From the NCBI GenBank assembly GCA_964637955.1, contig CAZWXQ010000006.1, positions 26,926 to 90,925 of the forward strand: a stretch of DNA of 64,000 nucleotides, in the 5' to 3' direction. A model generated the notes under the pieces. It saw only the letters and a list, made by a program, of their open reading frames with translations. It had not been told where the DNA came from and made no database searches. The stretch is from an uncultured Gammaproteobacteria bacterium. Lineage in GTDB: Bacteria > Patescibacteriota > Microgenomatia > Levybacterales > UBA12049. The first letter of the stretch is position 1. Every line of letters starts with the position of its first letter. This document shows, in pieces, positions 9,558 through 53,086 of the stretch. Both the position numbers and the translations under genes were made by a program.

Positions 9558-9577
9558 TACTGCTTTATAAACAAAAA

Positions 9578-9602: not shown

Positions 9603-9646
9603 CAGCTAACATGAAGATATAATTCTTTCTTTAAGCTCGCCCAGTT

Positions 9647-9807: not shown

Positions 9808-9992
9808 TGCACATTTAAATGGGCGAATCTTATTAAAAACAGCAAAAATGAATTGTTGAATTATCAAGGATTGGCAACTTAATCTGTTATTTTTGGCCTC
9901 AACTATTTAACTTGACAATTTTCACAGTTCCTGTTTCAATATTTACGGCAGTTAGTTTTATTCCTGCCTGAAAAACTAACTGTTATTTTGAA

Positions 9993-16837: not shown

Positions 16838-16930
16838 CGGATCCTCCTTTCGAGGAGTGGGTGGTCATAAGACCCCAACCGGAACGATCCCTCAGGACCG
16901 AAGAACGGTATTCAGGTCTAGACCGGTGGT

Positions 16931-18145: not shown

Positions 18146-18437
18146 GGGAGAGAGTCTCCTTGTTGTGTGCGAGTGGATGCGTCCGACTCGGTTGATGGGG
18201 TGGGTAGCCCTGGGTTTTGATTCCCTGGACACCTCCTTGGTTGGAGAGCTTCTTGACGACCTTTCTTTCGTCTGGATTGGTTGGGTTGGCCGATTGACTG
18301 GGTAGAGAGCTGAATAGACGTGATGTCCACTCATCTCTTAAGTTAAGCCCATTCGAGGCAACGATTTCTAGCACTGTTGCTAGCACGTATCGCCTGAACT
18401 TAACTCATAACTAACCCCCAGAACTCGCGCAGCATAT

Positions 18438-18550
18438 GAATTTTCAATTTAAAATTTTCAATTTTCAATGAATTTTCATTTGTTTAATTTTTAAATTTTA
18501 AACATTTGGATTTCATTTGAAATTTGAAATTAAAAATTAATAATTCTTGT
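18438..18550. repeat. AT-rich intergenic repeat family (AATTTTCAATTTTAAATTTTTAATTTTCAT...AAATTTTAAACATTTGGATTTCATT), copy 1
   Basis: Nearly identical to the copy at 36941-37045; related copies at 28285-28355, 37755-37830 and 39420-39530. Confidence 0.6.
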
Positions 18551-27920: not shown

Positions 27921-28284
27921 TGTATTTACAATTATTGCTTTTTAAAAGTTTTTACTATATACTGCAATTGGTGCCCATGGAAACTTCATAAGTTCTCTGG
28001 GGAAAGAAAATGTTGTTCTCAGAGAATACCTCAGATACATACTATATCATCTCAAATCGAGAGTTTTTGTTTTGTTTTCAAAATAGAAACTTGTAGAAAA
28101 ATACTCGTTTTCCCAATTAATGGGATATTGCGAGGAAAGTGAGCCCAGTGCTTAGATCAAAGATCTAAGTATAAGTAACTCTAAAGCTCACTCTGTTCGC
28201 TAAAGAGTTACTAATACTAAAGTATAAGATTTTACTAATCTTTTTCTTCGAAAAAGAAAGCAAATCTAAAAAGGAGGTGAAAAA

Positions 28285-28355
28285 TTAATTTTCAATTTTA
28301 ATTTTCAATTTTCAATTAATTTTGAATTTTGAATTTTAAATTTTAAATTCGAAAA
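28285..28355. repeat. AT-rich repeat family copy 2 (AATTTTCAATTTTAATTTTCAATTTTCAATT...)
   Basis: Immediately upstream of 28357 ATG. Preceded by an AGTATAAG...hairpin...TCTAAAAAGGAGG module resembling the 5675-5745 unit. Confidence 0.5.
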
Positions 28356-36028: not shown

Positions 36029-36973
36029 TTACTTTATTCTGTTTTTTAACTTTGCAGCTCTTATAAGCCAAGTAAGTATAGTTATCAGAGAAACTGTAAC
36101 TAGTAGACCTTTTACTGGCAATGCGAAAAATACTTTTGATTCGTGTAGTAGGGGGCCATTTTCAGAAATTGCCACATTAAGATCAGCCTTATATATTCCT
36201 AGAAGAAAGTTTTCATTCCAGGCTAACTTGCCGTTTGAGTTAGCTATAATTCTGCTCGAGTTTTCTAGTATCGTGGTTGGTTCAATTTCGACATTTCCTA
36301 CAGTTTGGCCAAACATGTTTTTTATGACTAAATTTCCTTTTGAAGTAACAAAATGCTTGCTGGTATTACTTATTTCTAATTCAGCTTCAACTGGACCATT
36401 TGAAACAAATCGGGGTATGGTAAATTTGGAAATAGCTCCGGTTGATTTATCATCTGATCCAACAGTAAGAAGAAGATTTACGCCTAAGCCTGCTTTATTC
36501 AAAACTATATTTGTCTTAGCTTCGCCAGAAGCTGTTTGAGATAAGAAAATAGCTGTGAAATAATAATCTCTTTGTTCAACTTCATCAGTAACCGGGATCA
36601 TTAGCAAGAGATTTTTCCTTTGAAAAGGTGGCACTGTGAGCTCGCTTAAGGGTTTTCCCTGGTCTGATATAGTTACTTTTTCAAAGAAAGATTTATATTC
36701 TTCTGAGAGTTCTGGATCAAAATTAGGTTCTCCGCTAAAATCAGAATTAGCCTTGAATGGGCGAAGAAAGATATTGTAAGTTATATTTTGATCCGATGAA
36801 TTATAAATATTTATCGGAGCTTTCACGACAGAAGGTGAGCTTGCGCGAATCTTAATTACGCTTGGGTTTACGCTTGTGGAAAAATTTTGAGCACTAGCGT
36901 TTTGTGCAAATGTAGTTAAAAGCATAAGCGCAATTAGAAGTATAATTTTCAATTTTAAATTTTTAATTTTCAT
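36029..36973 (-). CDS. Secreted protein with C-terminal TM anchor (hypothetical)
   Basis: N-term MKIKNLKLKIILLIALMLLTTFAQNASA is a signal peptide; first 10 codons encoded by AT-rich repeat. C-term VKGLLVTVSLITILTWLIRAAKLKNRIK. Confidence 0.55.
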   Translation of the reverse strand: MKIKNLKLKIILLIALMLLTTFAQNASAQNFSTSVNPSVIKIRASSPSVVKAPINIYNSSDQNITYNIFLRPFKANSDFSGEPNFDPELSEEYKSFFEKVTISDQGKPLSELTVPPFQRKNLLLMIPVTDEVEQRDYYFTAIFLSQTASGEAKTNIVLNKAGLGVNLLLTVGSDDKSTGAISKFTIPRFVSNGPVEAELEISNTSKHFVTSKGNLVIKNMFGQTVGNVEIEPTTILENSSRIIANSNGKLAWNENFLLGIYKADLNVAISENGPLLHESKVFFALPVKGLLVTVSLITILTWLIRAAKLKNRIK

Positions 36974-37045
36974 TCAATTATTAAATTTTAAAACATTTAG
37001 ATTTCATTAATAATTTTAAATTAGTAATTTTAAATTATTATTAGC
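36941..37045. repeat. AT-rich repeat family copy 3 (overlaps start codon of 36029..36973)
   Basis: ATAATTTTCAATTTTAAATTTTTAATTTTCATTCAATTATTAAATTTTAAAACATTTAGATTTCATT matches 18438-18550. Confidence 0.6.
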
Positions 37046-37049
37046 AAAG

Positions 37050-37793
37050 CTAATAACTAGGAATAGCTATGAAAGTAACTGTATTTGAATAGGGGCCTCG
37101 AGGCTGAGATGAGGAAACATTCACTTTGTAAGTAATCGAAGCTTCCTGGCCTAAGCTAGAGCTCTCAGAGAGCATGGTGGTTGGAGTCTCATCTTTTGAT
37201 GCATCTGAGAATTGTTTGAAATAATTTTCTCTATCAAAGCTAGTGTCATTTTCCACGCAGCTAGATTTACTAGAATCACATCTATATCCAAATCCATAAG
37301 TAAGAGTGCTGTCCCATTTGTCTGAAGTATAATCTGTGCATTTTCCATTATCACAAGTCGTGTCTGGGATTTTCACGCCTTTTTTAGCTTCGGTTAATTC
37401 ATGATTTTCAATTCCTGTAACTTTATAGCCAGCCTTATTCATGTTTTTAACTTTCAAAATATTGCTTCTGGTCACTGGATTGGTTGGGGAAAGTGAGCCG
37501 AAATCGATATTAGTGCTTGAAATAGAAAAACTGAATGGGTTATTTTCTGGAGAATAGTTTTTTCCCAAATCAACTTTATAGTTCACGCCTGAAAGCTCAT
37601 TACCCGTATTAGATGTGTCTATATCGATATTATTTGATGTAGTCGGGTCTGCAAAAGAATTGATGTTTTCAATCTGAACTTTATACATCGAATTCTGAGA
37701 TGACTGGGCACGAACCAAAGGCATAGAAATAAACAAATAAGCAAATAAACAAATAAGCAAATAAATTTTTAATTTTAAATTTTTAATTTTCAT
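37050..37793 (-). CDS. Secreted hypothetical protein (247 aa)
   Basis: N-term MKIKNLKLKIYLLICLFAYLFISMPLVRA signal peptide, again starting inside an AT-rich repeat copy (37755-37830). Cys-containing middle region. Confidence 0.5.
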   Translation of the reverse strand: MKIKNLKLKIYLLICLFAYLFISMPLVRAQSSQNSMYKVQIENINSFADPTTSNNIDIDTSNTGNELSGVNYKVDLGKNYSPENNPFSFSISSTNIDFGSLSPTNPVTRSNILKVKNMNKAGYKVTGIENHELTEAKKGVKIPDTTCDNGKCTDYTSDKWDSTLTYGFGYRCDSSKSSCVENDTSFDRENYFKQFSDASKDETPTTMLSESSSLGQEASITYKVNVSSSQPRGPYSNTVTFIAIPSY

Positions 37794-37906
37794 TGAAATA
37801 TTAATTCAAAATTTACAAATAATAATTTTCCGTTAATTAAATCGTAGCACAAAAGTAATATAACCTGCCATGAAGTCAGTTTCGCTGCAATTTAAAGACC
37901 TATAGT

Positions 37907-37935
37907 TTGACATTTACCTTAAAATATGGTAGGAT
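37907..37935 (+). promoter_or_regulatory. Sigma70-like promoter TTGACA-17-TAGGAT upstream of long structured leader of high-GC gene 38286..38729
   Basis: Consensus -35, 17-nt spacer, TAnnnT -10, all in AT-rich DNA just before the GC jump. Confidence 0.4.
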
Positions 37936-38028
37936 ATAGATCGCTTTTTGAGGCTAAATTAGCCATTTGCGGTTAAAATTAGCATCATTAAGTTTATTTA
38001 TTCTGAGAGGTTAATTTTTCTCAGATCT

Positions 38029-38130
38029 GGTCGCTTAAAGCGGCCTCGCACCTTAACAGATTGTCTAGTAGCTTCTATCTGAATTTATTCAGATTTAGAA
38101 CTACTTGATGCCGATACTTAATGTATCGGT
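38029..38130 (+). promoter_or_regulatory. Conserved ~100-nt hairpin-rich leader element, copy A (second copy 46288-46392)
   Basis: GGTCGC-TTAAAG-CGGCC hairpin, CTCGCAC, AGTAGCT..TCTGAATTTATTCAGATTTAG..CTACT, then CCGATAC-TTAATG-TATCGG hairpin. Aligns position by position with 46288-46392. Confidence 0.45.
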
Positions 38131-38285
38131 ATGGAATGAAAATTATAAATTATTGCTCATGTAAAGTGAGGACAATGGTTTAGTTATTAGTAAAAATAGC
38201 TGATCTTTTGTCCTTACTTTGCTTTGGCCGCAAGGTCACATAGAAGAGTTCGCTCGACTATGAGAGCAGAAAGCAGAGAAAGAAC

Positions 38286-38729
38286 ATGTCTGAGGAGCAG
38301 AAAGCATGCAAGCAGAAAACTCAGACAAGCTGGAGCACAGGCATGTCACTTCTTAGTGTTCGCCAGAACAGCGAGCTTGAGTTCGCTCGAGCCGTGAGGA
38401 AGATCCTGGAAAAGGCCATCAAGGAGAAGGTGACGATCACCCGCATCGTCAACGATCCCGAGTGGGTCATCCGGATCATCCGTGTCGATCAAGAGGGGGG
38501 GGTTTCCTCCGTCAGGTTCGAGGCGGTCTTCTACTCCGTGAGTCCTTTCGCCTACGACAACAGGTACTTCAAGTACCTCAGCCTAGTCATCACGGATGAC
38601 AATGGCTTCGGGGGCTCAGCGGAGTTCAAGTTCACTGACGATCAGATGTTCGTGACAGTTGGCTCATTGTGGCCGTCCACGCATCCGATCCAGCTGAACC
38701 TGACGTTCGACGACGACAATTTCCGCTAG
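38286..38729 (+). CDS. Hypothetical protein (147 aa), high-GC island 2
   Basis: GC3-rich codons (atc, ttc, aag, gag, gac), unlike neighbours. Contains an in-frame G8 homopolymer at 38495-38502. Confidence 0.6.
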   Translation: MSEEQKACKQKTQTSWSTGMSLLSVRQNSELEFARAVRKILEKAIKEKVTITRIVNDPEWVIRIIRVDQEGGVSSVRFEAVFYSVSPFAYDNRYFKYLSLVITDDNGFGGSAEFKFTDDQMFVTVGSLWPSTHPIQLNLTFDDDNFR

Positions 38730-39419
38730 GCCATAGGGGCGAAAAGGGGAGTCTGCTCTCTCTCCTCAGCTCCGGGTACGGAACTCTTAGTGAGGTATCG
38801 CGTGTGCAGAACGCTACCGATAATATCGTCAAGCTCGCGCGCTTCTTGAGGCGGTTATCCGTCTTGGCTTCGCAGTTCTGACGATCGGACGTGGTCTTCG
38901 TGCAGCCTACAAGCTGCTCGGCAAACTTTAGCTCGAAAGGAGCGGAAGGTGAAGAAGCCTCAGAATCCGAAGAGGATCCTGGTTCGCAGTTGGCCTAGGC
39001 CTCCTGGTCTCATTAGGCCATGGGTAGATCCCAGGATCGCTCCCAGCACCGGCAAGCAGAAGAAGTCTGTTGTCATCAAGTTCTGAAAGGAGCAGATTAG
39101 GGCAAGTAGCTCAATTCATTCCGCAATCATCCTAAGGGGAAATTCAGCCCTATGGATACAACTCGTGCTCTAAAAGGCATGGGTGAAACTGCACAGGTAC
39201 TGGGACGAAAGTCTTGGAAATAGAGACTAGATCTGGCGATCTTAAGGTTGTGCTGCATCGCTGCACCCCCTCGAGTTCTCCTCATTTTTTCTCCTTAACA
39301 CCTGTGTTTTTTCATGCCCATTTATAGTCATTAGTTAATAGGTATTAGATATTAGGCAATAGATTTAAAGCTAGTCACTAGTATCTAGTAACTAATAACT
39401 CAGGAGTGCTATACTTCAA

Positions 39420-39530
39420 GTATAATTTTCAATTTTAAATTCTCAATTTTCAATCAAGCTCAAAATTTTAAAATTAAAAATTAATACATTTATATTTCAA
39501 TGAAAATTAAAAACTCTAAATTAAAAATTA
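39420..39530. repeat. AT-rich repeat family copy 5 (inverted pair; supplies leuS start codon and first ~10 codons)
   Basis: AATTTTCAATTTTAAATTCTCAATTTTCAATCAA... then ATGAAAATTAAAAACTCTAAATTAAAAATT. Confidence 0.5.
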
Positions 39531-41950
39531 ATTCACGCTATTTTCCGCACAAAATTGAGGCTAAATGGCAAGAGAAATGGGCGAGTGATAAGATTTATGA
39601 GTTCAAATCTGATTCCTCAAAAGAAAAATATTATAACCTAGTAGAGCTTCCTTATCCTTCAGGAGATCTTCACTTAGGACATTGGTTTGCTTTTGTTCCG
39701 CCGGATGCTCACGCGCGATACATGCGTATGAATGGTAAAAATGTTCTATTTCCGAATGGGTTTGATGCATTTGGATTACCTGCTGAGAATGCTGCAATAA
39801 AACGTGATATCCATCCCAAAGATTGGACTATGAAAAACATCGAAACTATGAGGGGACAATTTGAAACCATGGGAACTATGATTGACTGGACTCACACCAC
39901 TAAAACGTGTCTTCCAGATTATTACCGCTGGAATCAGTGGATTTTCTTAAAGATGTTTGAAAAGGGCATTGCATACAGAGGAAAAGCGCTATCAAACTGG
40001 TGCCCAAAGGATCAAACTGTATTAGCTAACGAGCATATTGAGAGTGGAAAATGCTGGAGATGTGGAGAAGTTGTTGAGCAAAAAGAAGTAGAGCAGTGGT
40101 TCTTGAAGATCACAGATTTTGCCGATAAACTTCTTTGGGAGAATACTGATGAAAAGATCAGTAATGGAGTTGATTGGCCAAAAAGTGTCCGAGAAGCTCA
40201 GAATAATTGGATTGGAAGAAAAGATGGTATAAAGATTAAGCACGAGGTCGTAGGAACAGATCTTTCATTTGAAACTTTTTCAGCTTTTCCTGCATGGTTA
40301 TGGGCAGATTCATTCATAGTCATTGCTCCCGAACATCCACTGGTTAAAGAGCTTGTAAAAGGAACAGATAGCGAAAAAGAAGTTTTGGAATTTGTAGATG
40401 AAATGTCAAAGGAAACTGAGCTGGAAAGAAAAGAGACTACAGAAAAAAAAGGTGTTTTCACAGGAAGATATGCAAAGGATCCATTTGGCGGTAAAGATAT
40501 GCCTATTTGGCTTGCAAATTTTGCATTGCTAAATTTTGGGACAGGTATAATTAGATGCTCTAGCCATGATCCAAGAGATTTTGAGTTTGCCACAAAGTAT
40601 AAATTAGATCTTAAAGAGGTAGTAGATAGATATAATGATCAGCCCGCAAATGCTCACGACAATAAAGGTGTTCTTAAAGATTCAGGGCCATTTAGCGGTC
40701 GAAAAGTTAGCGAAGTAAGAGAAGAGGTGCTAGATTGGATTGAAAAAGAAGGAATTGGCGTTAGATTTGTAAATTATCATCTTCATGATTGGTCTATTTC
40801 AAGACAGCGCTATTGGGGAACACCTGTGCCAATTATTCATTGTGAAAAAGATGGAGATGTGCCAGTACCATTTGATCAGCTTCCGGTTGAGATTCCTTAC
40901 GAAGTAGATTATACACCACAGGGAAAGCCTCCTTTGGCATCAGCGGAAGATTGGTTAAATGTTGAGTGTCCTGTTTGTCACGGGCCGGCTAAGAGGGATG
41001 CCGAGACTTTAGACACTTTCTTTGATTCTGCTTGGTACTATTATCGTTACGTTTCGCCTCATTTTGAGGAAGGACCGTTTGATAGCGAGCTTGTCAAAGC
41101 GAGCATGCCTGTAAATGTGTATTTTGGCGGAGGAGAACACACTCTTGGTCACACGCTGTACGCGCGCTTTTTCACAAAGTTCTTTAAGGAGTTAGGATTA
41201 GTAGATTTTGATGAGTTTGCGCTGAAGCGAGTTCAACATGGAGTGATTCTAGGGCCTGACGGAAACCGCATGAGTAAATCAAAGGGAAATGTAGTAAATC
41301 CAGATGATGTAGTTCGTGAATACGGAGCAGACACCGTCCGTTTATATCTGTGCTTTATGATGCCTTATGAGGCTACAGCACCTTGGTCAGTAGGCGCAAT
41401 CTCAGGTATATTTAGATTCCTCAAAAGAGTTTGGGATTTGCAAAATAGTTTGGGGGAAAATATTGAATTAAATTCAGAAGATGAGTATTGGTTAAATAAA
41501 ACTGTTAAGAAGGTTGGAGAAGATCTTGAGGAGATACATTTTAATACCGCTGTTTCAACTCTCATGGAGTGGTTAAATTATTTATCCTCCAAGAAAGAGA
41601 TCTCAAATCTTGAGTATAAAACATTTTTGAAGCTACTTGCTCCTTTTGCGCCACATATTACAGAAGAAATATGGAGCCAGATAGATGATGAATTTCCAGT
41701 AAGCTCTATTCATCTTGAATCATGGCCCGAGTTTAATCAGGCTAAGATAGTTCAAGATGAAGTAAATATTGCAGTACAGATAAATGGCAAAGTTCGTGGA
41801 GCGATAAAAGTAGAAAGCTCAAAAATTGAATCTCAATCAGATATAGAGGAGATTGTAAAAAATGATCAAAATATATCAAAATATCTAGGAGGACAACAAA
41901 TTAAAAAAATAATTTATATAAAAGGAAAAATTATTAGCTTTGTTATTTAG
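39500..41950 (+). CDS. leuS: Leucyl-tRNA synthetase
   Basis: FPHKIEAKWQEKW N-terminus, HIGH-type motif (PYPSGDLHLGHWFAF), CP1 editing region, KMSKS (RMSKSKGN). N-terminal MKIKNSKLKI comes from the repeat element. Confidence 0.9.
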   Translation: MKIKNSKLKINSRYFPHKIEAKWQEKWASDKIYEFKSDSSKEKYYNLVELPYPSGDLHLGHWFAFVPPDAHARYMRMNGKNVLFPNGFDAFGLPAENAAIKRDIHPKDWTMKNIETMRGQFETMGTMIDWTHTTKTCLPDYYRWNQWIFLKMFEKGIAYRGKALSNWCPKDQTVLANEHIESGKCWRCGEVVEQKEVEQWFLKITDFADKLLWENTDEKISNGVDWPKSVREAQNNWIGRKDGIKIKHEVVGTDLSFETFSAFPAWLWADSFIVIAPEHPLVKELVKGTDSEKEVLEFVDEMSKETELERKETTEKKGVFTGRYAKDPFGGKDMPIWLANFALLNFGTGIIRCSSHDPRDFEFATKYKLDLKEVVDRYNDQPANAHDNKGVLKDSGPFSGRKVSEVREEVLDWIEKEGIGVRFVNYHLHDWSISRQRYWGTPVPIIHCEKDGDVPVPFDQLPVEIPYEVDYTPQGKPPLASAEDWLNVECPVCHGPAKRDAETLDTFFDSAWYYYRYVSPHFEEGPFDSELVKASMPVNVYFGGGEHTLGHTLYARFFTKFFKELGLVDFDEFALKRVQHGVILGPDGNRMSKSKGNVVNPDDVVREYGADTVRLYLCFMMPYEATAPWSVGAISGIFRFLKRVWDLQNSLGENIELNSEDEYWLNKTVKKVGEDLEEIHFNTAVSTLMEWLNYLSSKKEISNLEYKTFLKLLAPFAPHITEEIWSQIDDEFPVSSIHLESWPEFNQAKIVQDEVNIAVQINGKVRGAIKVESSKIESQSDIEEIVKNDQNISKYLGGQQIKKIIYIKGKIISFVI

Positions 41951-43937: not shown

Positions 43938-45179
43938 ATGTCTCCAAAATTTATCTATTTGATAGTAGCCTGTCTTTTTATTTTGCTATCTATAAGAATA
44001 GCTTTATTTTATTCTTCTGTCGAAAAATATCCTCCAGGCCAGATAATCAGTTGGCAAGCAAAAGTGCTAACACAGCCGAAGCTAAGCGTTCGTGGTCAGC
44101 AGTTTTCAGTATCTATGCCAAATTCGCAAAGAGTTTTGCTAAATTTGAAGCTAATTCCTCAGGTTTCGTATGGAGATAGTCTTTTGATAAGAGGTAAAGT
44201 GGATTATATAGAAGTCGGAGAAGGAGATTTGATCGCTTTTATGAATTATCCTGAGTTTAGGATAGTTGAGGTAGGCAGGGAAGGCAGTTTCATAATTAGA
44301 ATTCGAGAACACATTATCAGCTTTTTTAATTCATCTCTTCCTCAAACATATTCATCTCTAATGCTTGGAATAGTTTTTGGCATAAAAGAGGAGATGCCTG
44401 CTGATTTTTACTTGGATCTTCAAAAAACAGGACTTATGCACGTAATAGCTGCATCCGGAATGAATATAACCATGCTTGGGGGATTTTTGAGTTTGATTTT
44501 TGCCATGTTTTTTAGACGACAAGTAGCACTTATTCTTACAATTCTTGGAATCATTCTTTATGCCGTGCTTGCAGGCCTTGAGCCGTCCATAGTCAGAGCT
44601 TCGATTATGGGTATTTTGGTTTTTCTAGCCCAGCTTACAGGGCGTCAGAATAGCAGTTTCCTGGCACTATTCTTTGCTGCTTTCTTAATGCTTATGCGAA
44701 CGCCTAGTCTAATTCTTGATGTTGGATTTCAATTGTCGTTTTTAGCAACATTTGGTTTGGTTTATCTTAGGCCTATATTTGCATTTATTCCAGGCATTAA
44801 AAGGTTTTCAGAAAAGTCAGTAATTGTTGAAGATTTGACCACTACTTTAACAGCTCAGATTTCGACTTTGCCAATTCTTCTGGCCAATTTTGGAAGTTAT
44901 AGTCTCTGGTCAATTCCAGTAAACGCGATTGTACTTTGGACAGTTCCAATACTAATGATAATAGGTGGAGCAGCTGCGATAATTTCTTTTCTGATTGAGC
45001 CTATGGCAAGAGTGGTATTATACTTTTCTGTACCATTTTTGCTTTATTTTACAAAAATCGTTGAGGTTTTTGGAAGTTTTCCAGGTCAGATAAATATAAA
45101 AAGCATGTCATTAATGATAATCTCAGGCTATTATTTAATAATTCTGGCAATAATTGTCTATTTTAGAAATAAAAAGTAA
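43938..45179 (+). CDS. comEC: ComEC/Rec2 DNA-uptake channel, membrane competence domain (no fused lactamase domain)
   Basis: Polytopic. GLMHVIAASGMNITMLGGF competence-domain signature. Confidence 0.8.
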   Translation: MSPKFIYLIVACLFILLSIRIALFYSSVEKYPPGQIISWQAKVLTQPKLSVRGQQFSVSMPNSQRVLLNLKLIPQVSYGDSLLIRGKVDYIEVGEGDLIAFMNYPEFRIVEVGREGSFIIRIREHIISFFNSSLPQTYSSLMLGIVFGIKEEMPADFYLDLQKTGLMHVIAASGMNITMLGGFLSLIFAMFFRRQVALILTILGIILYAVLAGLEPSIVRASIMGILVFLAQLTGRQNSSFLALFFAAFLMLMRTPSLILDVGFQLSFLATFGLVYLRPIFAFIPGIKRFSEKSVIVEDLTTTLTAQISTLPILLANFGSYSLWSIPVNAIVLWTVPILMIIGGAAAIISFLIEPMARVVLYFSVPFLLYFTKIVEVFGSFPGQINIKSMSLMIISGYYLIILAIIVYFRNKK

Positions 45180-45215
45180 TAGTTTGATATTGTCCTTATT
45201 CAATAGAATTCATGT

Positions 45216-46082
45216 ATGAAGAAGGTATATTTTTTTATTTTCACAGCTTCTATTTCTCTATTAATTCTAATTATATTCGTATTATTTAGCTTCAATGATA
45301 AAAAGCTTCACATAATAATGTGTGATGTAGGGCAGGGTGATGGGATTTTGATTGATACCCCTGATAATGCCCAAATTCTAATAGATGGAGGTCCTGATAA
45401 GAGTGTTCTTGAATGCTTATCAAAGCATATGCCGTTTTGGGATAGAAGTATTGAGGCTATAATCCTTACTCATCCACACGCAGATCACTATTTTGGCCTG
45501 ATAGATGTAATAGAGCGATATAAATTGAATGGGTTTTATACCGAAGCCGTAAAAACGAATTCTGAGGGTTTTGATTTGCTTGAAGCTAAATTAGCAAGTA
45601 AAAAAATGAGTGCTAAAGATTTGAGCGTAAACGATAATTTTAGAAATAAGTCTGGAGTAAATATAAAAATATTATGGCCGAAGCTAGAAAATTCTAAAGA
45701 AATAGATCAGAATAGCGCAGATATAGACCTAAATGGATTAAGCGTAGTAGCCTTGCTAACGTACGGGAATTTTTCAATGCTTCTTACAGGTGATGCTGGA
45801 GAAAATGTCATGAATCAATTAGAAAATGTGGCTGGCGATATCGATATATTAAAAGTCCCACATCATGGCTCCAGGACAGGAATGGATGATGGATTCCTAA
45901 AGTTGGTAAAGCCGGAAATAGCTTTGATCTCGGTTGGACAGAAGAATAAATATGGTCATCCAGCAAAGGAAAGTTTGGATCTACTCAAAAAGAACAATAT
46001 TAAGATTTTTAGGACTGATAAGAACGGGACGATTGAGATTATATCTGATGGGAGAAGCTATAAAGTTAAATCTTCAAAATAG
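45216..46082 (+). CDS. ComEC C-terminal-type metallo-beta-lactamase-fold protein encoded as separate ORF
   Basis: HIIMCDVGQGDGILID, ILTHPHADH, KVPHHGSRTG. Same reading frame as comEC but separated by three stop codons in 36 nt. Confidence 0.75.
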   Translation: MKKVYFFIFTASISLLILIIFVLFSFNDKKLHIIMCDVGQGDGILIDTPDNAQILIDGGPDKSVLECLSKHMPFWDRSIEAIILTHPHADHYFGLIDVIERYKLNGFYTEAVKTNSEGFDLLEAKLASKKMSAKDLSVNDNFRNKSGVNIKILWPKLENSKEIDQNSADIDLNGLSVVALLTYGNFSMLLTGDAGENVMNQLENVAGDIDILKVPHHGSRTGMDDGFLKLVKPEIALISVGQKNKYGHPAKESLDLLKKNNIKIFRTDKNGTIEIISDGRSYKVKSSK

Positions 46083-46094
46083 GCCCCATAGTCG

Positions 46095-46124
46095 TTGACT
46101 ATTAAATTTGCCTTGTGATAAAAT
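46095..46124 (+). promoter_or_regulatory. Sigma70-like promoter TTGACT-18-TGATAAAAT (extended -10-like) upstream of ~500-nt structured leader
   Basis: Located in AT-rich DNA 13 nt after the MBL gene stop. Confidence 0.4.
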
Positions 46125-46287
46125 TCATTCTTGTGTGCTTGATGCTAAAAGCTTCACTCTTCGGATTTGCCCGTAGAATTGAGGATTAGATAAAGTATGC
46201 AAATTTGGTTTCAAATTAAATATTGAAACTTCGTCCCGCGTTTATGCGTGGGTCTTTGTCTCTTGGACATCCGTCCTGGGACTCGTT

Positions 46288-46392
46288 CCACTTTAAAGAG
46301 TGGAGCATCGCACATTAAAATGTTATTAAGTAGTAGCTGTCTGATTTATTCAGATTTAGTTCTACTAATCCTACATATTTAAAATATGCAGG
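46288..46392 (+). promoter_or_regulatory. Conserved hairpin-rich leader element, copy B
   Basis: CCACT-TTAAAG-AGTGG hairpin, CATCGCAC, AGTAGCTGTCTGATTTATTCAGATTTAGTTCTACT, CCTACATATTTAAAATATGCAGG hairpin. Further hairpins (GGACCCCTCTAGGTCC, CTGAAGCTACGCGCTTCAG, GTCAGTCTTAAAGCTGAC) before the ORF. Confidence 0.45.
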
Positions 46393-46631
46393 ACAGAATT
46401 TTAACCTAGATGGGTACATCTTGATAATTAGCTTTTTGTTAATTATTAAAATGGACCCCTCTAGGTCCTCATCTATTTAACCTCATCCCATACTGAAGCT
46501 ACGCGCTTCAGAATAAAAGTCAGGGGCATCGTCCACTGACAAAAGTCCATTTGGCCGTAGTGAGTCAGTCTTAAAGCTGACTTGTTGGCATCATCCGAAG
46601 GGTCAATAGACCCTCAAGGGGAGTTACATCC

Positions 46632-47123
46632 ATGGGTTCTTCGGTCACTCCGATCCATTCTCGTGCGCTCAGCGCATGGGTCGTGTTCCGCGTCGAGGGC
46701 TCTGACAAGCCTTTGGTGGAGATCAAGGCGTACGGTTCCGACCACGCGACCCTGAAGGCTGACGCCATCCGCCAGATCAAGGCTTGCATCGAGAGCAAGC
46801 AGAAGTTCGAGCTTCTCGATGACGTGACGGTCTACCAAGACGTCATGGTCTGTGGGACGGTCCCGCCCGGCAACACGGAGTTCTGTCTCCTGGTTCGCTT
46901 CAGCGGCACCATCCACGACATCGTCGAGGCAGCCGGGCCCCAGCTCGAGAGGCTCTTCAAGCAGCTTCCGCAGCTCGCCGAGAAGGACGTCGATCCGCAT
47001 CACCTGACGCTGCTTCGCAGGGTCATCGACAACGCGACCACCGTCGACGAGGCGCAGGCCTGGTTGACTGAGCGCCGTCTCGGCAACAAGGCGCGAACGC
47101 GCAAGCTGGCGACCGGTCGCTGA
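46632..47123 (+). CDS. Hypothetical protein (163 aa), high-GC island 3
   Basis: SD AAGGGGAG 8 nt before ATG. GC3-rich balanced composition. The antisense 188-aa ORF is Arg/Leu/Asp-rich frame shadow. Confidence 0.6.
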   Translation: MGSSVTPIHSRALSAWVVFRVEGSDKPLVEIKAYGSDHATLKADAIRQIKACIESKQKFELLDDVTVYQDVMVCGTVPPGNTEFCLLVRFSGTIHDIVEAAGPQLERLFKQLPQLAEKDVDPHHLTLLRRVIDNATTVDEAQAWLTERRLGNKARTRKLATGR

Positions 47124-48082
47124 TCCCTTCTGGCATCTGGCTGGACTCAACATCTGGCAAGTTGCCGAGTCCCATCGCACCGAAAGTGCGAGCTAGTTCA
47201 CCCCGAAGGGAGTGAATTGGATGAAGACATCATTCCACCCGCCGAAGGATTTGCTGCGAGCCGCCAAGGCCAATTTCGTGGACTCTCGTGTTGTCCATCG
47301 AATCCGCGATCATTCGGTGAGAAAGTGCCCAAGGCACTGCAACATCGCCTGGTACACGGCGGCTCCACTCAGGCCTGGTGAAATCCCAGCCCAGGATCTG
47401 GCTCGCATGTCGCGAGACTACATGTCCAGATCTGGGTAGATCGGGGTTTGAGGTCGGCTGATCGTCCGGAAGCGCTTGAGCATGTGCTCGAGAACAGGGT
47501 TTCAGTCCCACAAGCGCCAAATCCGGTTTCGGAGAGGTAAAGTTGCCAAGGAGGTGACATAAATTCTGTAACAGAAAATGTGTGAGGTAGTGCTATGGAC
47601 TCGAAAGAGTAAAAGAGGAGGACAAGGATGTTCTCGCCAAGCCAGAACTTTAGCGTTCTGACCCAGCGAGACTTTCTCGTTTCTTTTTCCCCATAGCACT
47701 ACTATCGCACCCTTTATATAAAAAAATTATTTCTCTAATTTTCTTCTAAAATCATAAAATTAATAAAATATTTCCATACCATAATTCTCCGGATTAAAGA
47801 CTTCCTTTGGTCGCCCTACATTTAATTTGGGCCTTCCTTTGGTCGAACATGCAATAATTTCCAGGACTCCATTCAGTAGCAAAATGAGCAAAAATCCCTA
47901 ATTTTTTTCACAAAATCTTGGCAGGTGATATAGTTTGAATGCTAGCATTTAGGAAGCTAAAAGGTAGTAAATAATTCCAAAAAGGCGATGTGAAAAATTA
48001 AATATTTACAATATATGATTTATTATTTACCATTTTTGTTATTGTTAAATCGTAAATGATAAATGGTATATGATATTTATCT

Positions 48083-48817
48083 TTAGGCTTTTGAGACAGA
48101 GGTATTGACGCCTCTTAATCTTCCAATTTCTTCAAGTTTTTCATCTAGGCCGTCATCGTCAACAGTCTTTAAATCTACTTGCTCTTTGCTTGCTGCCATA
48201 AGTCCAGTAATTATTCTCCGAGCTTTTTCTGCATCCTTTTTCCAAAACCAATTTAGACTAATGAGGTTTTCTGTAAAGTTTACATCGACAATATGTAGTG
48301 TCGCAAAAATCGGAGCGGTTTCTACATAAACATCCGAAATATCTTTTACCGAAATTGAGTGAATTCTTTCAGAGAAAAAGAAAGGGCGGTGGATGAAAGT
48401 TATTTTTGCCGTGTCTATAACTACCTCTCCTGGGAGAAGGGGAACAATATTTTTAAATCTTGCAACCATTTTTTCTGACTTATTTAATAATCCGAAAAAT
48501 TTAAAAGTATTTTTCCTGTGTTCTCTTACGGATTCCTTCATAGCTTCTTTTATTCCATCTTTTTGAGCTTCCTTTAGGTAATTTGGCAGTGGATCATTTT
48601 CAATTTGTTCGTCTGCATTTTTAACTGCTTTCAGTTCTATGGTCTCATCTCCTGTATTATCTGTAGTGGTTGATTTATTTTCGACGACTTCTAAAGCGGT
48701 ATCTGATTTATTGCGAGATGATTTACCACCTTTTGATATAGTTTCTGAGTCACTAGATTTATCCTCTTGATCATAATGAGGAACCATGGGATCGATATGA
48801 ATTTTTTGTCCAAACAT
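48083..48817 (-). CDS. Hypothetical protein with acidic low-complexity N-terminus and possible bacterial PH-like C-terminal domain
   Basis: 244 aa. C-terminal region resembles a bacterial PH-like domain; no TM segment. Confidence 0.5.
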   Translation of the reverse strand: MFGQKIHIDPMVPHYDQEDKSSDSETISKGGKSSRNKSDTALEVVENKSTTTDNTGDETIELKAVKNADEQIENDPLPNYLKEAQKDGIKEAMKESVREHRKNTFKFFGLLNKSEKMVARFKNIVPLLPGEVVIDTAKITFIHRPFFFSERIHSISVKDISDVYVETAPIFATLHIVDVNFTENLISLNWFWKKDAEKARRIITGLMAASKEQVDLKTVDDDGLDEKLEEIGRLRGVNTSVSKA

Positions 48818-49034
48818 AAACGAATTATGATCTGAAGCAATTAAGAAGAATTGTGAAATATGTATGAGTTTTGTCGGAAAAGATGATTAAAAGAAAAATG
48901 CATACAGGAAAGGTGAAAATAGGGTTTGGGGAGGGGGCTAAATGAGCCGTCATTACTACCGCACTTGGGTAGACTAGACAGGTCAATGCTCCTCCCATTC
49001 CCTTACGCCTTCCTGACGCTCTTGACCCGCAGGT

Positions 49035-49910
49035 CTAGTGCGCCTTCACCGCGTTAACGGCTCGGATGAGTCGTGCGTTCTTGGGGCCACCATCCATGCG
49101 AGTTCGCATGAAGAGGTCATAGACCGCACGGTCGTAGATCGTCCTGTCTAGAACGAGCTTGAACTTCTTCGAAGACACCATCGAGCCGGGATCTCTGTGC
49201 GTGTAAGGCCAGGTGGACAGTTCATCGTTCGTGAACCAGTTTGTTGGATCGATGAACTCGATCGGCGGGCACGCGTGGGCGTAGCCGTACCGAACGATGC
49301 GGTCGCTGGTCAACTTGTCCTTGATCGTGTCCAGGCAGTAGGTGTCCGGGTATCCGGTCAGGTAGATGGCGATCTCCTTCAGCGTTGCCGTCGGAGACAA
49401 GAAGGGCGGTACGCCCAACATGAACCAGCCACCAGGCCGATTGAACCAGAGGACGAGACCCTCGTTGGCTGCGTAGAACAGCTCACCGCGGGAATACCTG
49501 CGTGAGATGCCGGGGGCTCCGAGTACCGCGTTGCGGTAGTTGAAGACCAGGTTCGGCATCTCGTCCGGTGCGTACCACGACGCGAAGCAGAAGTTGGCAT
49601 CGATGACGACGTTCTCGACCGTGACGGTCTTGAAGTCGCGCTTGATGCGCTTCTTCGGCTTGATCAGCGTGTCGCACAGCGCCGGATCGTCGTGGATGAC
49701 CAGGATCGGATGGCCACTCGTCAGTGTCACCTTCTGGACACCTCTTGCCACGTGGGCGCGGATTGTGTCGTTGGGTGTGCTGGCGCTAGCCACAGAACCG
49801 ACGATGAGGACCGCGGATGTCGCGATCAAGATCGAGGCTCCAAGCTTCCTGAGATTCACTGCGTTTCCTCCGAGTACTAGGCGATTCCTGAGACGGTTCG
49901 GCCTCGACAT
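49035..49910 (-). CDS. Secreted hypothetical protein (about 292 aa), high-GC island 4
   Basis: Start set at MSRPNRL... because the ORF-track ATG (50075) lies upstream of the predicted promoter. Signal peptide LGASILIATSAVLIVGSVASA. GC3-rich codons, several Cys. Confidence 0.6.
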   Translation of the reverse strand: MSRPNRLRNRLVLGGNAVNLRKLGASILIATSAVLIVGSVASASTPNDTIRAHVARGVQKVTLTSGHPILVIHDDPALCDTLIKPKKRIKRDFKTVTVENVVIDANFCFASWYAPDEMPNLVFNYRNAVLGAPGISRRYSRGELFYAANEGLVLWFNRPGGWFMLGVPPFLSPTATLKEIAIYLTGYPDTYCLDTIKDKLTSDRIVRYGYAHACPPIEFIDPTNWFTNDELSTWPYTHRDPGSMVSSKKFKLVLDRTIYDRAVYDLFMRTRMDGGPKNARLIRAVNAVKAH

Positions 49911-50034
49911 CAGTCGATGACGAACTCTTTCCTGTATGCGAATTGAAATGTGCTGTCGCGAGCATCTTTTTTCTCTGTCGATGTTTTCTCCAGATGAGCT
50001 TTGCAAAAAAGCGAGATTCTTTTGACGGCTGACA

Positions 50035-50062
50035 TTATACCATAAAAAGTGTGACACATCAA
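50035..50062 (-). promoter_or_regulatory. Sigma70-like promoter (TTGATG-16-TGGTATAAT, extended -10) on minus strand driving island-4 gene
   Basis: Read on minus strand: TTGATGtgtcacactttttaTGgTATAAT. Lies in the AT-rich gap shared with argS. Confidence 0.45.
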
Positions 50063-50107
50063 AACTATAGGTCAATAATTCAAGGCTAAAATGTTATATG
50101 ATACAAT

Positions 50108-51790
50108 TTGTTTATGAAAATAAAAGAAGAGTTAGAAAAGAAGCTTTCAGAAATTGTTTCTGAGCTTGTAGGTCAAGAAATTGAAGCACAGGTTTCTATT
50201 CCAAACGACCTTTCTAAGGGAGATTTTACATCAAATATCGCCATGAGGCTTGCTGGAAAAATGGGGAGCCCAATGGAGGCAGGAGAGAAGATAGTCGAGA
50301 AACTTCGCGAGGATAAGGATTTATATTCCAAATTTACCAAGATCGAACTTGTGAACCCAGGATTTATAAATTTCTTTATTTCCCATGAATTAATATTTGA
50401 TTCTGTTGCTAAAGCGTTGAAGGGATTTGAGAACGATGTAGCCAAGGCGAGCATAATTATGGAGTTTGGAGACCTCAATCCTTTTAAAGAGCCTCATATT
50501 GGGCACATCAGAAACTTTACTTTAGGTGAAGCTTTATCGAGACTGTTTGAATTTACTGGCAATAAGGTTTTTAGAGTAAATTATGAAGGTGATGTAGGTA
50601 TGCATGTGGCTAAATCTATTTGGGGAATTAGAAAGTCTGGCGAGTTTGAAAAAGTATCAGGGGAAGATTTGGAAGCTCGAGCAAAATTTTTAGGTAAATG
50701 CTACGCCTCAGGCGCAAAGGCTTTTGAAGAAGATGAGGTTGCAAAGAAAGAAATTGTGGCTATAAATAAAAAGGTTTATGAAAAAGACCCAGAAATTATA
50801 GAGATTTGGGAAATTGGAAGAGCATGGAGCCTTGAGTATTTCGAAGGGCTTTATAAAAGGGTTGGAGTGAAATATGAAAATTATTATTTCGAGTCAGAAA
50901 TTGCAGAGCAGGGGAAAAAGATCGTTTTGGAAAATCCTGATGTTTTTGAAAATGATAACGGGTCATATATTTTTCGGGGTGAAAAATTTGGATTACATAC
51001 CAGAGTTTTTATAAACAGCGAGGGAAATCCTATTTATGAAGCGAAGGATTTGGGGTTGGCTTTTGCGAAAAATCGAGATTTTCCAAATGTCGATAAATCG
51101 ATAATTATGACGGCAAATGAACAAGCTGATTACTTCAAAGTTTTGATAAAAGCGTTGGGAGAAGTGGATGAAAAAATCGCCGAAAAAACTGCTCATTTAT
51201 CATATGGTTTTATAGATCTTAAGGAAGGGAAAATGTCGTCGAGAAGTGGAAATGTAGTGTCTGGTTTTTGGTTACTTGATGAAACAAAAAAAAGATTAAA
51301 AGAAGGGTTTAAAGAGGTCTCAGACGACGTCGCAGAAGATTTAGCTATCGGAGCAGTAAAATGGTCAATGCTTAAGTTTTCACGGGAATCTAACATTAAG
51401 TTCTCGATAGAAGAAAGCATTGATTTGGCAGGCAATTCAGGTCCGTATATTCAGTATACATACGCTCGAATTTCGTCAATTATTTCTAAATCCTCAAAAA
51501 GCGATATAGCCTCAATTTCCGTGAAAAATTACCCCCCAGAATTGCTAGCACTAGGCCGACTTGTTTGCCAATTTGAAAGTGTTGTAAAAACCGCTAAAGA
51601 CCATTTTTCGCCAAACTTTTTAACAGAATATCTGTTTGTTCTCGCCCAAAACTTTAATGCGTTTTATGAAAAGGAAAAGATCATTGGGAGTGAAAATGAA
51701 AGTGAAAAATTGGCGGTAAGTTTGGCAGTAAAAAATGTAATAGGAAAGGGTTTGAATTTACTAGGAATTAATACCCCGGAGAAGATCTAG
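50108..51790 (+). CDS. argS: Arginyl-tRNA synthetase
   Basis: HIGH motif (PHIGHIRN), KMSK-type motif (KMSSRSGN), C-terminal DALR anticodon-binding region. Confidence 0.9.
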   Translation: MFMKIKEELEKKLSEIVSELVGQEIEAQVSIPNDLSKGDFTSNIAMRLAGKMGSPMEAGEKIVEKLREDKDLYSKFTKIELVNPGFINFFISHELIFDSVAKALKGFENDVAKASIIMEFGDLNPFKEPHIGHIRNFTLGEALSRLFEFTGNKVFRVNYEGDVGMHVAKSIWGIRKSGEFEKVSGEDLEARAKFLGKCYASGAKAFEEDEVAKKEIVAINKKVYEKDPEIIEIWEIGRAWSLEYFEGLYKRVGVKYENYYFESEIAEQGKKIVLENPDVFENDNGSYIFRGEKFGLHTRVFINSEGNPIYEAKDLGLAFAKNRDFPNVDKSIIMTANEQADYFKVLIKALGEVDEKIAEKTAHLSYGFIDLKEGKMSSRSGNVVSGFWLLDETKKRLKEGFKEVSDDVAEDLAIGAVKWSMLKFSRESNIKFSIEESIDLAGNSGPYIQYTYARISSIISKSSKSDIASISVKNYPPELLALGRLVCQFESVVKTAKDHFSPNFLTEYLFVLAQNFNAFYEKEKIIGSENESEKLAVSLAVKNVIGKGLNLLGINTPEKI

Positions 51791-51826
51791 TTTGACTTCT
51801 AAATCTACAAGTCGTAGCATAAAATT

Positions 51827-53086
51827 ATGCATAAACTTCGTTCGGAAAGAGGATTTTTCTTATCAGGAATTTTGCTTGGAGCAGGAGCGATACTGGTTAT
51901 GGGGGTCATGTTTGTGATTGTTTTGAGAAGTTTTTTGTCCAGCCGCTCTCTAGCTTGGCGATCAGACTTTCAGAAAGGTTGTTCGTGGAAGTCCCCAGAT
52001 GTATCGAATAAGAAATCTATCTGCGGTGAGCATATTTACCAATATGATTCTGGGGATAATCTTGTCAATATTGTTACGCATTCAGGTTATAACGATTTAT
52101 ATTCAATATCTAAGGATACAGGTAATTTGATTTGGAACACATCTGTTTTAAGTGCTTTTTATAAGCAAGATGGCTCAATTTATCCAAATAACAACAAGGA
52201 TTCATTTAAATCTTTTAACAATAAAATTTACTTGTTCGGAATAAGTAGAGTAACCGCTTTAAGTTCAGACACAGGTGAGCAAATAAATTCGGTAATATTT
52301 CCATTTCATACAAGTTCAGATGCCGTATTGGAAGATGAAAAATTTCTAATCGTAAGTGATGAAGGAAAATTATATGAAATAGATCCAGAGACTTTATCAT
52401 ATAGTCAAAAGGGAGATTTGCCCTATTGGGATAAAGAGATCCCGAAAATGAAAGTGGATGGAAATATTATTTACTACATAGGTGATCCTAATCAAGATCA
52501 GCATTATGATAGTAAGTTTATGGCTTTTGATTTTGTAAACAAAAAATTGATTTGGGCAATTGATAATGTTCCTCAGGATTTAGGTGGGTCACCAATGGAT
52601 GATAAATATATATATGTTTTTAGTAATGATCAAGTTTTTGCCTTAAATAAAGAAGCAGGTGAGTTAGCATGGTCAATACATGCAAATGAAAATAATCCTC
52701 GCATGAACAGTAATCCTATGCTCATAGCTCTTTCTAAAAACAATATAGTAGCTGCATTTGATGATAAAATAAACGTATTAGATAAATACTCCGGTAATGT
52801 TGTCAATTCATTTCCAGAGGACGGTGAAGTTGCTAGTGCATTAAAAATAGACAATGACATAATGTATATTTTATATATCAATTTAGATCATGCTTTCGAT
52901 GGTGTGTCGAAAAGTTGGGTAGTGGCACAAGATATTAATACTGGAAAAGAAATAGCAAAATTCAGTTACGGTAAAACCGGTATTGATAGCATATTTTCAG
53001 ACCCCATAATAGGTGATAGTTATATCTATGCGATATGCAGACGCCAGGCATGTGCATTTAAGAAGCCTCAGATAACTAATGAATAG
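51827..53086 (+). CDS. Membrane-anchored PQQ-like beta-propeller repeat protein
   Basis: N-terminal TM, then repeated ...NLIWNTSVL / KLIWAIDNV / GELAWSIHAN motifs. Confidence 0.55.
   Translation: MHKLRSERGFFLSGILLGAGAILVMGVMFVIVLRSFLSSRSLAWRSDFQKGCSWKSPDVSNKKSICGEHIYQYDSGDNLVNIVTHSGYNDLYSISKDTGNLIWNTSVLSAFYKQDGSIYPNNNKDSFKSFNNKIYLFGISRVTALSSDTGEQINSVIFPFHTSSDAVLEDEKFLIVSDEGKLYEIDPETLSYSQKGDLPYWDKEIPKMKVDGNIIYYIGDPNQDQHYDSKFMAFDFVNKKLIWAIDNVPQDLGGSPMDDKYIYVFSNDQVFALNKEAGELAWSIHANENNPRMNSNPMLIALSKNNIVAAFDDKINVLDKYSGNVVNSFPEDGEVASALKIDNDIMYILYINLDHAFDGVSKSWVVAQDINTGKEIAKFSYGKTGIDSIFSDPIIGDSYIYAICRRQACAFKKPQITNE

Follow-up and report, generated by a model that had tools for sequence, protein, structure and literature searches.

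A GC-rich island downstream of ComEC in a Levybacteria-related bacterium carries conserved leader and tail structures around variable orphan genes

The 64,000-nt stretch of DNA analysed here (the window; positions 26,926 to 90,925 of contig CAZWXQ010000006.1, assembly GCA_964637955.1) is a low-GC (~35%) chromosome segment of a bacterium of the candidate phyla radiation (CPR). It contains four GC-rich islands, at ~15.7-18.4, 37.9-39.3, 46.1-47.7 and 48.9-50.05 kb. The third of these, island 3, spans 46086-47712 on the plus strand, has a GC content of ~60% and is neighboured by ComEC, a bPH-domain gene and the arginyl-tRNA synthetase (ArgRS) gene. The unit consists, in order, of a CCYATAGT promoter, a leader of ~500 nt, a first open reading frame (ORF1), an inter-ORF box, a second open reading frame (ORF2) and a tail of ~270 nt. 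We favour, with somewhat better than even confidence, the interpretation that island 3 is a resident, lineage-specific cassette with cis-acting RNA bookends, the GC-rich ORFs of which are exchanged between genomes. At the level of sequence, the comparisons demonstrate the architecture, the conserved position, the structural conservation of leader and tail, the coding nature of both ORFs and the replacement of ORFs. The family of GC-rich cassettes with conserved RNA bookends is absent from Rfam 15, and no description of it was found in the literature. The features of island 3 are as follows.

46086-46124, plus strand: promoter from a consensus scan, with the motif CCCATAGTCG, a -35 element TTGACT (46095-46100), an 18-nt spacer with TG and a -10 element TAAAAT (46119-46124)
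46125-46631, plus strand: structured leader, taken from the fold z-score and alignment with relatives (5' untranslated region, with a presumed start of transcription)
46302-46399, plus strand: leader core, with the box TCGCACATTAA (46308-46318), hairpin H5 (46329-46366) and hairpin H6 (46370-46392)
46405-46465, plus strand: hairpin H7, long and AT-rich, then a weak U-rich stretch; it folds in the window, L003, L008, L012 and island 2
46493-46594, plus strand: GC-rich conserved end of the leader, with a hairpin (46493-46511), the block GTCAGGGGCATCGTCCACTG (46519-46538) and the block TTGTTGGCATCAT (46582-46594)
46632-47123, plus strand: ORF1, an orphan of 163 aa, with the ribosome-binding site GGGGAG 8 nt upstream
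47143-47166, plus strand: inter-ORF box GGACTCAACATCTGGCAAGTTGCC with the palindromic core GGCAAGTTGCC, from sequence comparison
47175-47191 and 47197-47216, plus strand: two hairpins peculiar to this genome, read from the sequence
47221-47439, plus strand: ORF2, 72 aa from its ATG (75 aa if read from the in-frame GTG at 47212), in which an H-x4-C-x2-H-C motif is conserved
47472-47517, plus strand: three-way junction, with P1 GCGCUUG/CAAGCGC, a palindrome hairpin and the hairpin GGG-UUUCAGU-CCC
47577-47712, plus strand: 3' terminal domain of 136 nt (covariance model R1), with P1 GUGUG/CGCAC outside and the 12-bp helix P2 within
47587-47598 with 47691-47702, plus strand: helix P2, a perfect 12-bp pairing of GTAGTGCTATGG with CCATAGCACTAC
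47599-47610, plus strand: hairpin ACUC-GAAA-GAGU with a true GNRA tetraloop, identical in all homologues
47665-47681, plus strand: terminator-like hairpin and U-rich run from a consensus scan, nested inside a larger conserved helix

The last ~270 nt of the unit (47440-47712) are non-coding and have a conserved structure of the RNA type. A first-pass annotation, made from the letters alone, had read the ~570 nt after ORF1 as a structured non-coding RNA. This holds for 47440-47712, where compensatory changes are found, and fails for 47221-47439, which is occupied by a gene. The fold of 47124-47730 has a z-score of -7.2 on the plus strand versus -4.3 on the minus strand. The GC content of 47124-47700, put earlier at ~60%, is 53.6% as measured, the part that ends at 47580 having 55% and the terminal domain 48.5%. 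Tail identity to the related loci L008 and L011 is 80-84%. The three-way junction is kept in L008, L011 and L003, with compensatory changes in three of its 13 pairs among the four sequences, and the palindrome noticed earlier, GAGCATGTGCTC, is indeed present inside it, at 47478-47489.

The terminal domain is built around helix P2. The 12-bp pairing had been recognised before; the perfect helix exists, with its 3' arm at 47691-47702 rather than at 47685, and a perfect inverted repeat of 12 bp is reached in only three of 1000 mononucleotide shuffles of the region. In the arm of the domain, a purine-rich strand pairs with a pyrimidine-rich strand below the apical hairpin CAGAAC/GUUCUG, and P2 in L008 contains a double change from A-U to G-C. 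Model R1 scores 143-156 bits on the plus strand (143 for island 3) versus 24-39 bits on the minus strand, and also matches L012 at 4948-5091, L014 at 9718-9845 and, with 22 bits, 39180-39317 at the end of island 2. Among the six plus-strand members, 89.8% of the cells are canonical pairs, many of them G-U, and 31 of the 47 pairs show compensatory changes, a count that leans toward structure because the alignment was fitted to R1. The words TCGCAC and AGTAG/CTACT had been said to recur here from an upstream conserved element. At the 3' end, TCGCAC and CTACT are present, as the 3' strands of the terminal domain's helices P1 and P2. A target-site duplication was considered for TCGCAC and rejected, since the word is a helix strand. 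Two mini-ORFs of 22 and 27 aa in the domain were likewise rejected, as they are not kept in L008 or L011. The suggestion that the region is the 3' end of a cassette was fair, in that the terminal domain also ends the GC-rich units of island 2, L012 and L014.

The leader is the second conserved structure. The fold of 46130-46640 has a free energy of -179.9 kcal/mol and a z-score of -10.3, and none of 100 shuffles was as stable, which bears out the structured leader of the first-pass annotation. Blocks of the leader align to L008, L011 and L003 at 75-85% identity, and the 20-mer block GTCAGGGGCATCGTCCACTG is identical in L003 and has one mismatch in L008. A covariance model of the leader core, R2, scores 105 bits at 46302-46399, with other matches in island 2 (38040-38137, 87 bits), twice in L008, once in L012 and once in L003; two weak, unverified matches in L014 have E-values of ~1e-3. 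In alignment A11, which contains five copies of the core with the box TCGCACNTTAA, H5 and H6, 91.8% of the cells are paired versus 25-42% when the partner is slid, eight pairs have compensatory changes, and none of 500 shuffles reaches the observed score. Conserved, covarying structure upstream of an ORF, one of the marks by which a riboswitch or attenuator would be recognised, is present in the leader. The base of H7 was flagged as terminator-like by the consensus scan, and H7 with the following U-rich stretch is a possible attenuator. In L008, an insertion of ~200 nt in the leader (7763-7960) codes for a hydrophobic ORF of 65 aa with a GC content at third codon positions (GC3) of 0.55, and therefore the leader can house extra coding sequence. 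Searches with short leader patterns gave a single chance match to the H5 23-mer in genome contigs, inside a coding region of Nomurabacteria, and four chance matches to the 20-mer block in metagenome contigs, all in one gene of an organism with 59% GC. Scans of viral contigs with DNA patterns gave no match.

The promoter proposed earlier is found at 46095-46124 as a sigma-70-like TTGACT-18-TAAAAT with TG upstream. Islands 2, 3 and 4, as well as islands in L008, L010, L011, L012, L013 and L016, have the motif CCYATAGT-N0-3-TTGAY at their head. In the window it occurs at 46086, 37899 and 50070 (minus strand), corresponding to islands 3, 2 and 4 only, and lies directly at the -35 region; in the relatives it is located at L008 7362, L010 5222, L011 7307, L012 2501 and 8708 (minus strand), L013 3299 (minus strand) and L016 8586. 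Its restriction in the window to islands 2, 3 and 4 suggests that a shared regulator or sigma factor is behind the island promoters. When R1 and R2 were searched for around GC-rich ORFs on the same strand, islands 3 and 2 scored. In islands 1 and 4, R1 reached an unconvincing 6-9 bits at best even without filters, one of these matches being on the wrong strand, and R2 under default filters found nothing; on these scores, both islands were rejected as members of the leader/tail RNA family. Island 2 and island 3 are members of one such family, while island 4 has only the promoter motif in common with island 3.

ORF1 is present as described in the first-pass annotation, at 46632-47123, and its GC contents at the three codon positions (0.63, 0.42 and 0.83) have a coding-type periodicity. 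An exhaustive HMMER search among 1.84 billion representatives retrieved two homologues only. The better match, P0001, is located on L003, a JGI contig of 1274 nt that represents a homologous element; the two copies are 40% identical, with proportions of nonsynonymous (pN) and synonymous (pS) differences of 0.42 and 0.58. No match to ORF1 was found in Pfam, PHROG or PADLOC, nor in a word-indexed database of 5.8 billion sequences. The AlphaFold model has a pLDDT of 70, and no significant PDB match was obtained by sequence search or by Foldseek with the predicted model. ORFs on the minus strand at 46614-47180 and 47230-47520 were rejected because their codon-position GC pattern is wrong. A public gene call of 179 aa (L001 1763-2302, equal to window 46614-47153, minus strand) lies on the wrong strand inside island 3, and another in the island 4 homologue (L010 8824-9735) is on the strand opposite to that of the window's ORF. 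ORF1 is not on record as a called product because the public gene calls picked the wrong strand; gene calls in the islands are thus misleading, and neither ORF1 nor ORF2 is recorded as a called gene product.

ORF2, previously a doubtful ORF of 75 aa, is by its pattern of substitution a real protein-coding gene. A homologue is found in the same slot of L011 (8114-8329), with 49% identity over 69 aa and an E-value of 1e-19, and pN is 0.36 versus a pS of 0.76 for the pair; the coding status follows from the homologue in the same slot together with a pN below pS. This is the conservation check that had been proposed for 47212-47439, and the conserved coding signal that it returned at 47221-47439 is what the first-pass annotation had itself named as speaking against its view that the region is something other than coding DNA. 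The GC3 of ORF2 is 0.66 in the window versus 0.38 in L011, which has AT-rich third positions. No homologue was found in the word-indexed database of 5.8 billion sequences, no Pfam family matched at E-values up to 5, and no PHROGs matched; nor did the other island ORFs of the window match anything in Pfam, PHROGs or PADLOC. The single-sequence structure model of ORF2 has a pLDDT of 45 and is unusable. The occupant of the ORF2 slot in L003 is an excisionase-like protein that matches HTH_17 (E = 1.2e-8). An assignment of ORF2 itself as an excisionase of the HTH_17 family (PF12728) was rejected, as it has no Pfam or PHROG match and is unrelated to the L003 protein.

Between the two ORFs, the palindromic box TGGCAAGTTGCCA has a core of 17 nt, ACATCTGGCAAGTTGCC, that is identical in the window, L003, L008 and L011, despite differing flanking ORFs. 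The two hairpins that follow, TCGCAC-CGAAA-GTGCGA at 47175-47191 and TTCACCCCGAAGGGAGTGAA at 47197-47216, had been listed as GNRA-type tetraloop hairpins. Both are present, and neither has a GNRA tetraloop: the first has a 5-nt loop, CGAAA, and the second a 3-nt loop, GAA, with a bulge, and the sequences are not kept in the relatives. In the window genome, the ribosome-binding site of ORF2, GGGAG, sits inside the hairpin at 47197-47216.

The comparison with homologous islands that had been called for shows that the leader and tail are kept and the ORFs are swapped. Syntenic loci were found through ArgRS homologues rather than by DNA pattern scans; the closest named relatives of the window's ArgRS are Candidatus Levybacteria. 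The loci after ComEC, with their ArgRS identity to that of the window, and the occupants of the two ORF slots are as follows.

L008 (ArgRS 83%): island-3-type unit, then the bPH gene, then ArgRS
L011 (ArgRS 73%): island-3-type unit, then the bPH gene, then ArgRS
L012 (ArgRS 68%): other ORFs between a leader and tail of the island 3 type, with additional islands
L016 (ArgRS 61%): only the promoter motif matched; an island-2-like divergent leader and tail judged by eye; without the bPH gene
L017 (ArgRS 59%), a Levybacteria metagenome-assembled genome: no island
ORF1 slot, window: 163 aa, related only to the L003 copy
ORF1 slot, L011: an unrelated ORF of 105 aa
ORF1 slot, L008: 126 aa, with hydrophobic membrane-like stretches, related to an ORF of 132 aa in L012
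ORF2 slot: an ORF of 72 aa in the window, with its relative in L011; one of 54 aa in L008; the HTH_17 gene in L003

The order of ComEC, unit, bPH gene and ArgRS is found in L008, L011 and L012. The site after ComEC holds an element of the family in five related genomes, the ArgRS of which are 61-83% identical to that of the window; L016 gave no significant match to R1 or R2. In the four aligned genomes, with ArgRS identities of 68-83%, the promoter motif begins at most ~15 nt after the ComEC stop codon. The blocks of promoter and leader are 75-85% identical to those of L008 and L011, and in L012 only a leader stretch of 73 nt is matched by blastn, at 77%. L003 shares the leader blocks, the inter-ORF box and the start of the 3' domain, with the HTH_17 gene in its second slot, and the set of leader, box and tail is found in each of the window, L008, L011 and L003. 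Between leader and tail, the ORFs of the window are unrelated to those of L008, L011 and L012, save for ORF2 in the window and L011. Families of island ORFs turn up again at other sites and in other genomes, and the GC3 of island ORFs is 0.35-0.88 versus 0.26-0.32 for host genes.

In the cassette interpretation that we favour, the whole unit would be transcribed as one mRNA. The leader would serve as a platform for regulation or expression and possibly as an attenuator, and the hairpin over the ribosome-binding site of ORF2 in this genome may be part of the same regulation, while the tail would set and protect the 3' end. Pairing of the leader box GCACAUUAA with AAUGUGYG beside the terminal domain may close the transcript. 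The non-coding blocks, of which three are conserved, could act as homology arms, by which GC-rich ORFs from a shared pool would be swapped through homologous recombination after DNA uptake; ComEA and ComEC are both encoded nearby. The complementarity of GCACAUUAA and AAUGUGYG, of 8-10 bp, is found in the window, L008, L011, L003 and L012 and extends differently in each copy. In a scan of each whole element for duplexes with the leader box, the AAUGUGYG segment ranks first in L008, L011 and L012 and second in the window.

Several observations weigh against this interpretation or parts of it. UUGUGUG, located near the start of the transcript, pairs best with the leader box in the window, so that closure of the 5' and 3' ends is uncertain, and the contact should be regarded as a lead, not a result. 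The transcript ends, the single mRNA and the regulation are predictions. The terminator-like hairpin at 47665-47681 is enclosed by helix P2, and termination at this hairpin would leave the 3' arm of the helix untranscribed. Exchange of ORFs by homologous recombination is proposed from mosaicism alone. The comparative set is small, with three close and three distant tails and five leader cores, and the alignments are partly model-fitted. Nor does the cassette model alone explain a GC3 of 0.66-0.83 versus 0.26-0.32 in the host. The contrast in GC3 between the two ORF2 copies would fit two origins: import from a GC-rich pool that is not sampled, followed by amelioration, or a local process that raises GC.

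A more far-reaching version, which we hold only tentatively, is that these units belong to an undescribed cassette system of a subclade of Levybacteria-like CPR bacteria, in which fixed docks (promoter motif, leader, box and 3' domain of ~135 nt) receive exchanged orphan ORFs with high GC3 from a pool common to several genomes, and in which the GC-richness is intrinsic. Here too, the leader and 3' domain may pair to close the transcript. Either recombination hot spots with biased gene conversion or adaptation to a GC-rich partner organism would then account for the GC-richness, which would not be the residue of ordinary horizontal transfer. There is a realistic chance that such a distinct Levybacteria system exists. 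CPR bacteria, with their tiny genomes, are thought to be episymbionts. A conserved platform for the expression of rapidly exchanged orphan genes would be a candidate locus for host interaction or defence, and the products of some genes elsewhere in the cassette family appear to be secreted or bound to the membrane. As RNA motifs, the leader and tail are unannotated and absent from Rfam. That the non-coding parts are better conserved than the proteins they flank, and that GC3 reaches 0.83 in a genome of 35% GC, poses a puzzle of composition and recombination.

The most serious of the alternatives, although an unlikely one, is that island 3 is a recently integrated mobile element (an integrative island, satellite or transposon) from a high-GC donor, with hairpin ends that serve as sites of recombination or transposition. 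The foreign composition, ~60% GC versus 35% in the genome, would be accounted for, as would the excisionase-like HTH_17 gene of the homologous unit in L003, a 1.3-kb contig that is broken inside the conserved ends as is seen for multi-copy repeats. The adjacent island 4, a polymorphism of 1.16 kb that is cleanly present or absent, also speaks for this reading. Yet the unit contains no integrase or transposase, and none was detected by Pfam in the scanned ORFs of the window, the sole exception being an ORF of 1478 aa ~11 kb away with SAM-like N-terminal domains only. Neither terminal inverted repeats (TIRs) nor target-site duplications (TSDs) are seen at the ends of island 3, and the site after ComEC is occupied in the five related genomes, so that the word mobile in the first-pass annotation finds no support. 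The composition boundary also falls within the unit, because the AT-rich leader belongs to the conserved element, and conservation is strand-specific and includes G-U pairs, which indicates RNA rather than DNA. Finally, the ORFs have no homologues in the sampled high-GC taxa, phages and plasmids. A further alternative, the structured ncRNA of the first-pass annotation, is an independent small-RNA gene at 47440-47712, perhaps with another in the leader, that merely adjoins the ORFs. Covariation and sequence conservation stronger than those of the adjacent ORFs, and a tail with no conserved ORF inside, speak for this, but every verified match to the domain is on the plus strand at the 3' end of a unit with GC-rich ORFs, the consensus scan found no promoter-like site in 47440-47577, and leader, box and tail occur together in the window, L008, L011 and L003. 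We judge this slightly less probable than the mobile element.

Much more improbable is an integron-like cassette in which the 3' domain is a recombination site of folded DNA, of the attC type. The domain is an imperfect long hairpin of ~135 nt in which the fold is kept more than the sequence, and it sits at the 3' end of variable ORFs. No IntI-type integrase was found by Pfam among window ORFs of at least 90 aa treated as genes, however, and the unit has its own promoter. The units are scattered in both orientations instead of being arrayed head to tail, and no RYYYAAC/GTTRRRY cores were read at the helix ends of 47577-47712. The domain is moreover branched, with a GAAA tetraloop, many G-U pairs and strand-dependent scores (143-156 versus 24-39 bits). 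None of the defining traits of integron cassettes that were looked for is present. The sharp jumps in GC content could also raise the suspicion of an assembly chimera or contamination, with high-GC reads misjoined into a low-GC genome, but this we regard as negligible. A Logan contig of run SRR14271332 matches window 44852-53012 without a difference, though it is possibly derived from the same data as the window, and homologous units with the same junctions are found in the separate assemblies of L008, L009, L011, L012 and L016. The islands are no assembly artefacts, because homologous units are present in assemblies from other samples.

The search for known RNA families that had been advised gave no family match for the region. 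At gathering thresholds, Rfam 15 identified only two tRNAs in the whole window. For 45900-48100, at E-values up to 10, only noise of at most 23 bits was obtained, versus gathering scores of 45-120, and L003, L011, L012 and L014, at E-values up to 0.5, gave only tRNAs. Collections of phages and plasmids gave no meaningful matches by blastn or tblastn.

Genes identified by Pfam in the window include those for Rho, LeuRS, ComEA, a two-component pair, ComEC (43938-46082), ArgRS (50108-51790), an M16 peptidase and NDK. Orphan ORFs are carried by all of the other islands: island 1 (15660-18420, minus strand), island 2 (37880-39320, plus strand) and island 4 (48893-50052, minus strand). In island 1, the proteins encoded at 16931-18145 and 15977-16837 look secreted and have a common C-terminal W-x-P-x-SCRPL motif. 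Island 2 is bracketed by a 46-nt inverted pair of AT-rich repeats of the family TTTTCAATTTTAAATTTT, which are 89% complementary (37760-37805 and 39488-39533); other copies adjoin island 1 and sit in intergenic spacers (18433-18541, 28280-28349 and 36938-36993). Between the bPH gene and ArgRS, island 4 forms a clean indel of ~1.16 kb, missing at L008 9882-10000 and L011 9529-9653 and present in L010 (78% nucleotide identity), with no target duplication visible beyond AAAA. The ORF of 1478 aa mentioned above (31054-35490, minus strand) has N-terminal phage-integrase SAM-like domains and a stretch similar to the XM1 gp53 minor capsid protein, and no match to an integrase catalytic domain by Pfam. 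In L008, ComEC looks fragmented into short ORFs (5229-7217), and the cassette downstream is intact. L014 (ArgRS 65%) contains, at 1-9850, a run of same-strand genes upstream of ArgRS with spacers of 500-700 nt; the products include Exo_endo_phos, sulfatase and SpoIID-like proteins, two of the spacers are weak R2 matches, and an R1-type tail ends the run. Downstream of island 3, the direct repeat CTTCCTTTGGTCG occurs at 47801-47813 and 47833-47845, with starts 32 nt apart, in an AT-rich spacer that is not resolved in the alignment to L008 and L011. A promoter-like site, TTCACA-16-TATAGT with TG, at 47907-47934 (plus strand) is followed by a TGCTAGCA hairpin down to ~47960. The site and hairpin are kept in L008 and L011 and face the 3' end of the minus-strand bPH gene, and the site may drive an antisense or small RNA.

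Phage morons, reportedly described by Hendrix and colleagues, are said to be autonomous units of promoter, gene and terminator between other genes, often with deviant GC content. Like these, the island 3 unit lies between unrelated genes, has an atypical GC content, and varies in presence or content among relatives; with a promoter-like site of its own and a terminator-like hairpin, nested in a larger conserved helix, near its 3' end, it may also be self-contained. Unlike morons, it sits among cellular housekeeping genes (ComEC and ArgRS) rather than in a phage, and its leader of ~500 nt and tail of ~270 nt are conserved and fixed while the ORFs change; the island 3 region has no PHROG matches and no matches to phage DNA or proteins. 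With integron cassettes, in which attC sites are ~60-140 nt long, island 3 has in common that variable ORFs are followed by a structured element and that a pool of genes is common to several genomes. It differs from them in having no integrase, attC cores or array, in having its own promoter, and in an RNA-like conservation that is strand-specific, with G-U pairs and a GNRA loop. As for transposons, of the IS200/IS605 TnpA/TnpB type or other and with non-autonomous derivatives included, Pfam detected no transposase domain and no TIR or TSD was seen at island 3. Cis-regulatory leader RNAs include riboswitches, attenuators and leaders for processive antitermination such as EAR. Island 3 resembles them in its long, covarying 5' untranslated region and in the long hairpin that precedes a U-rich stretch, and differs from them in that it belongs to no Rfam family and that the downstream genes are unrelated orphans rather than members of one pathway. 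For the 5'-3' pairing only, the helices that join the ends of rRNA operons during processing and the cyclisation sequences of RNA viruses offer an analogy. Unlike those, the pairing in island 3 is predicted, with little covariation in its core and an alternative partner near the transcript start; the likeness lies in the leader box complementarity of 8-10 bp to a partner ~1.3-2.3 kb downstream, which recurs in five elements.

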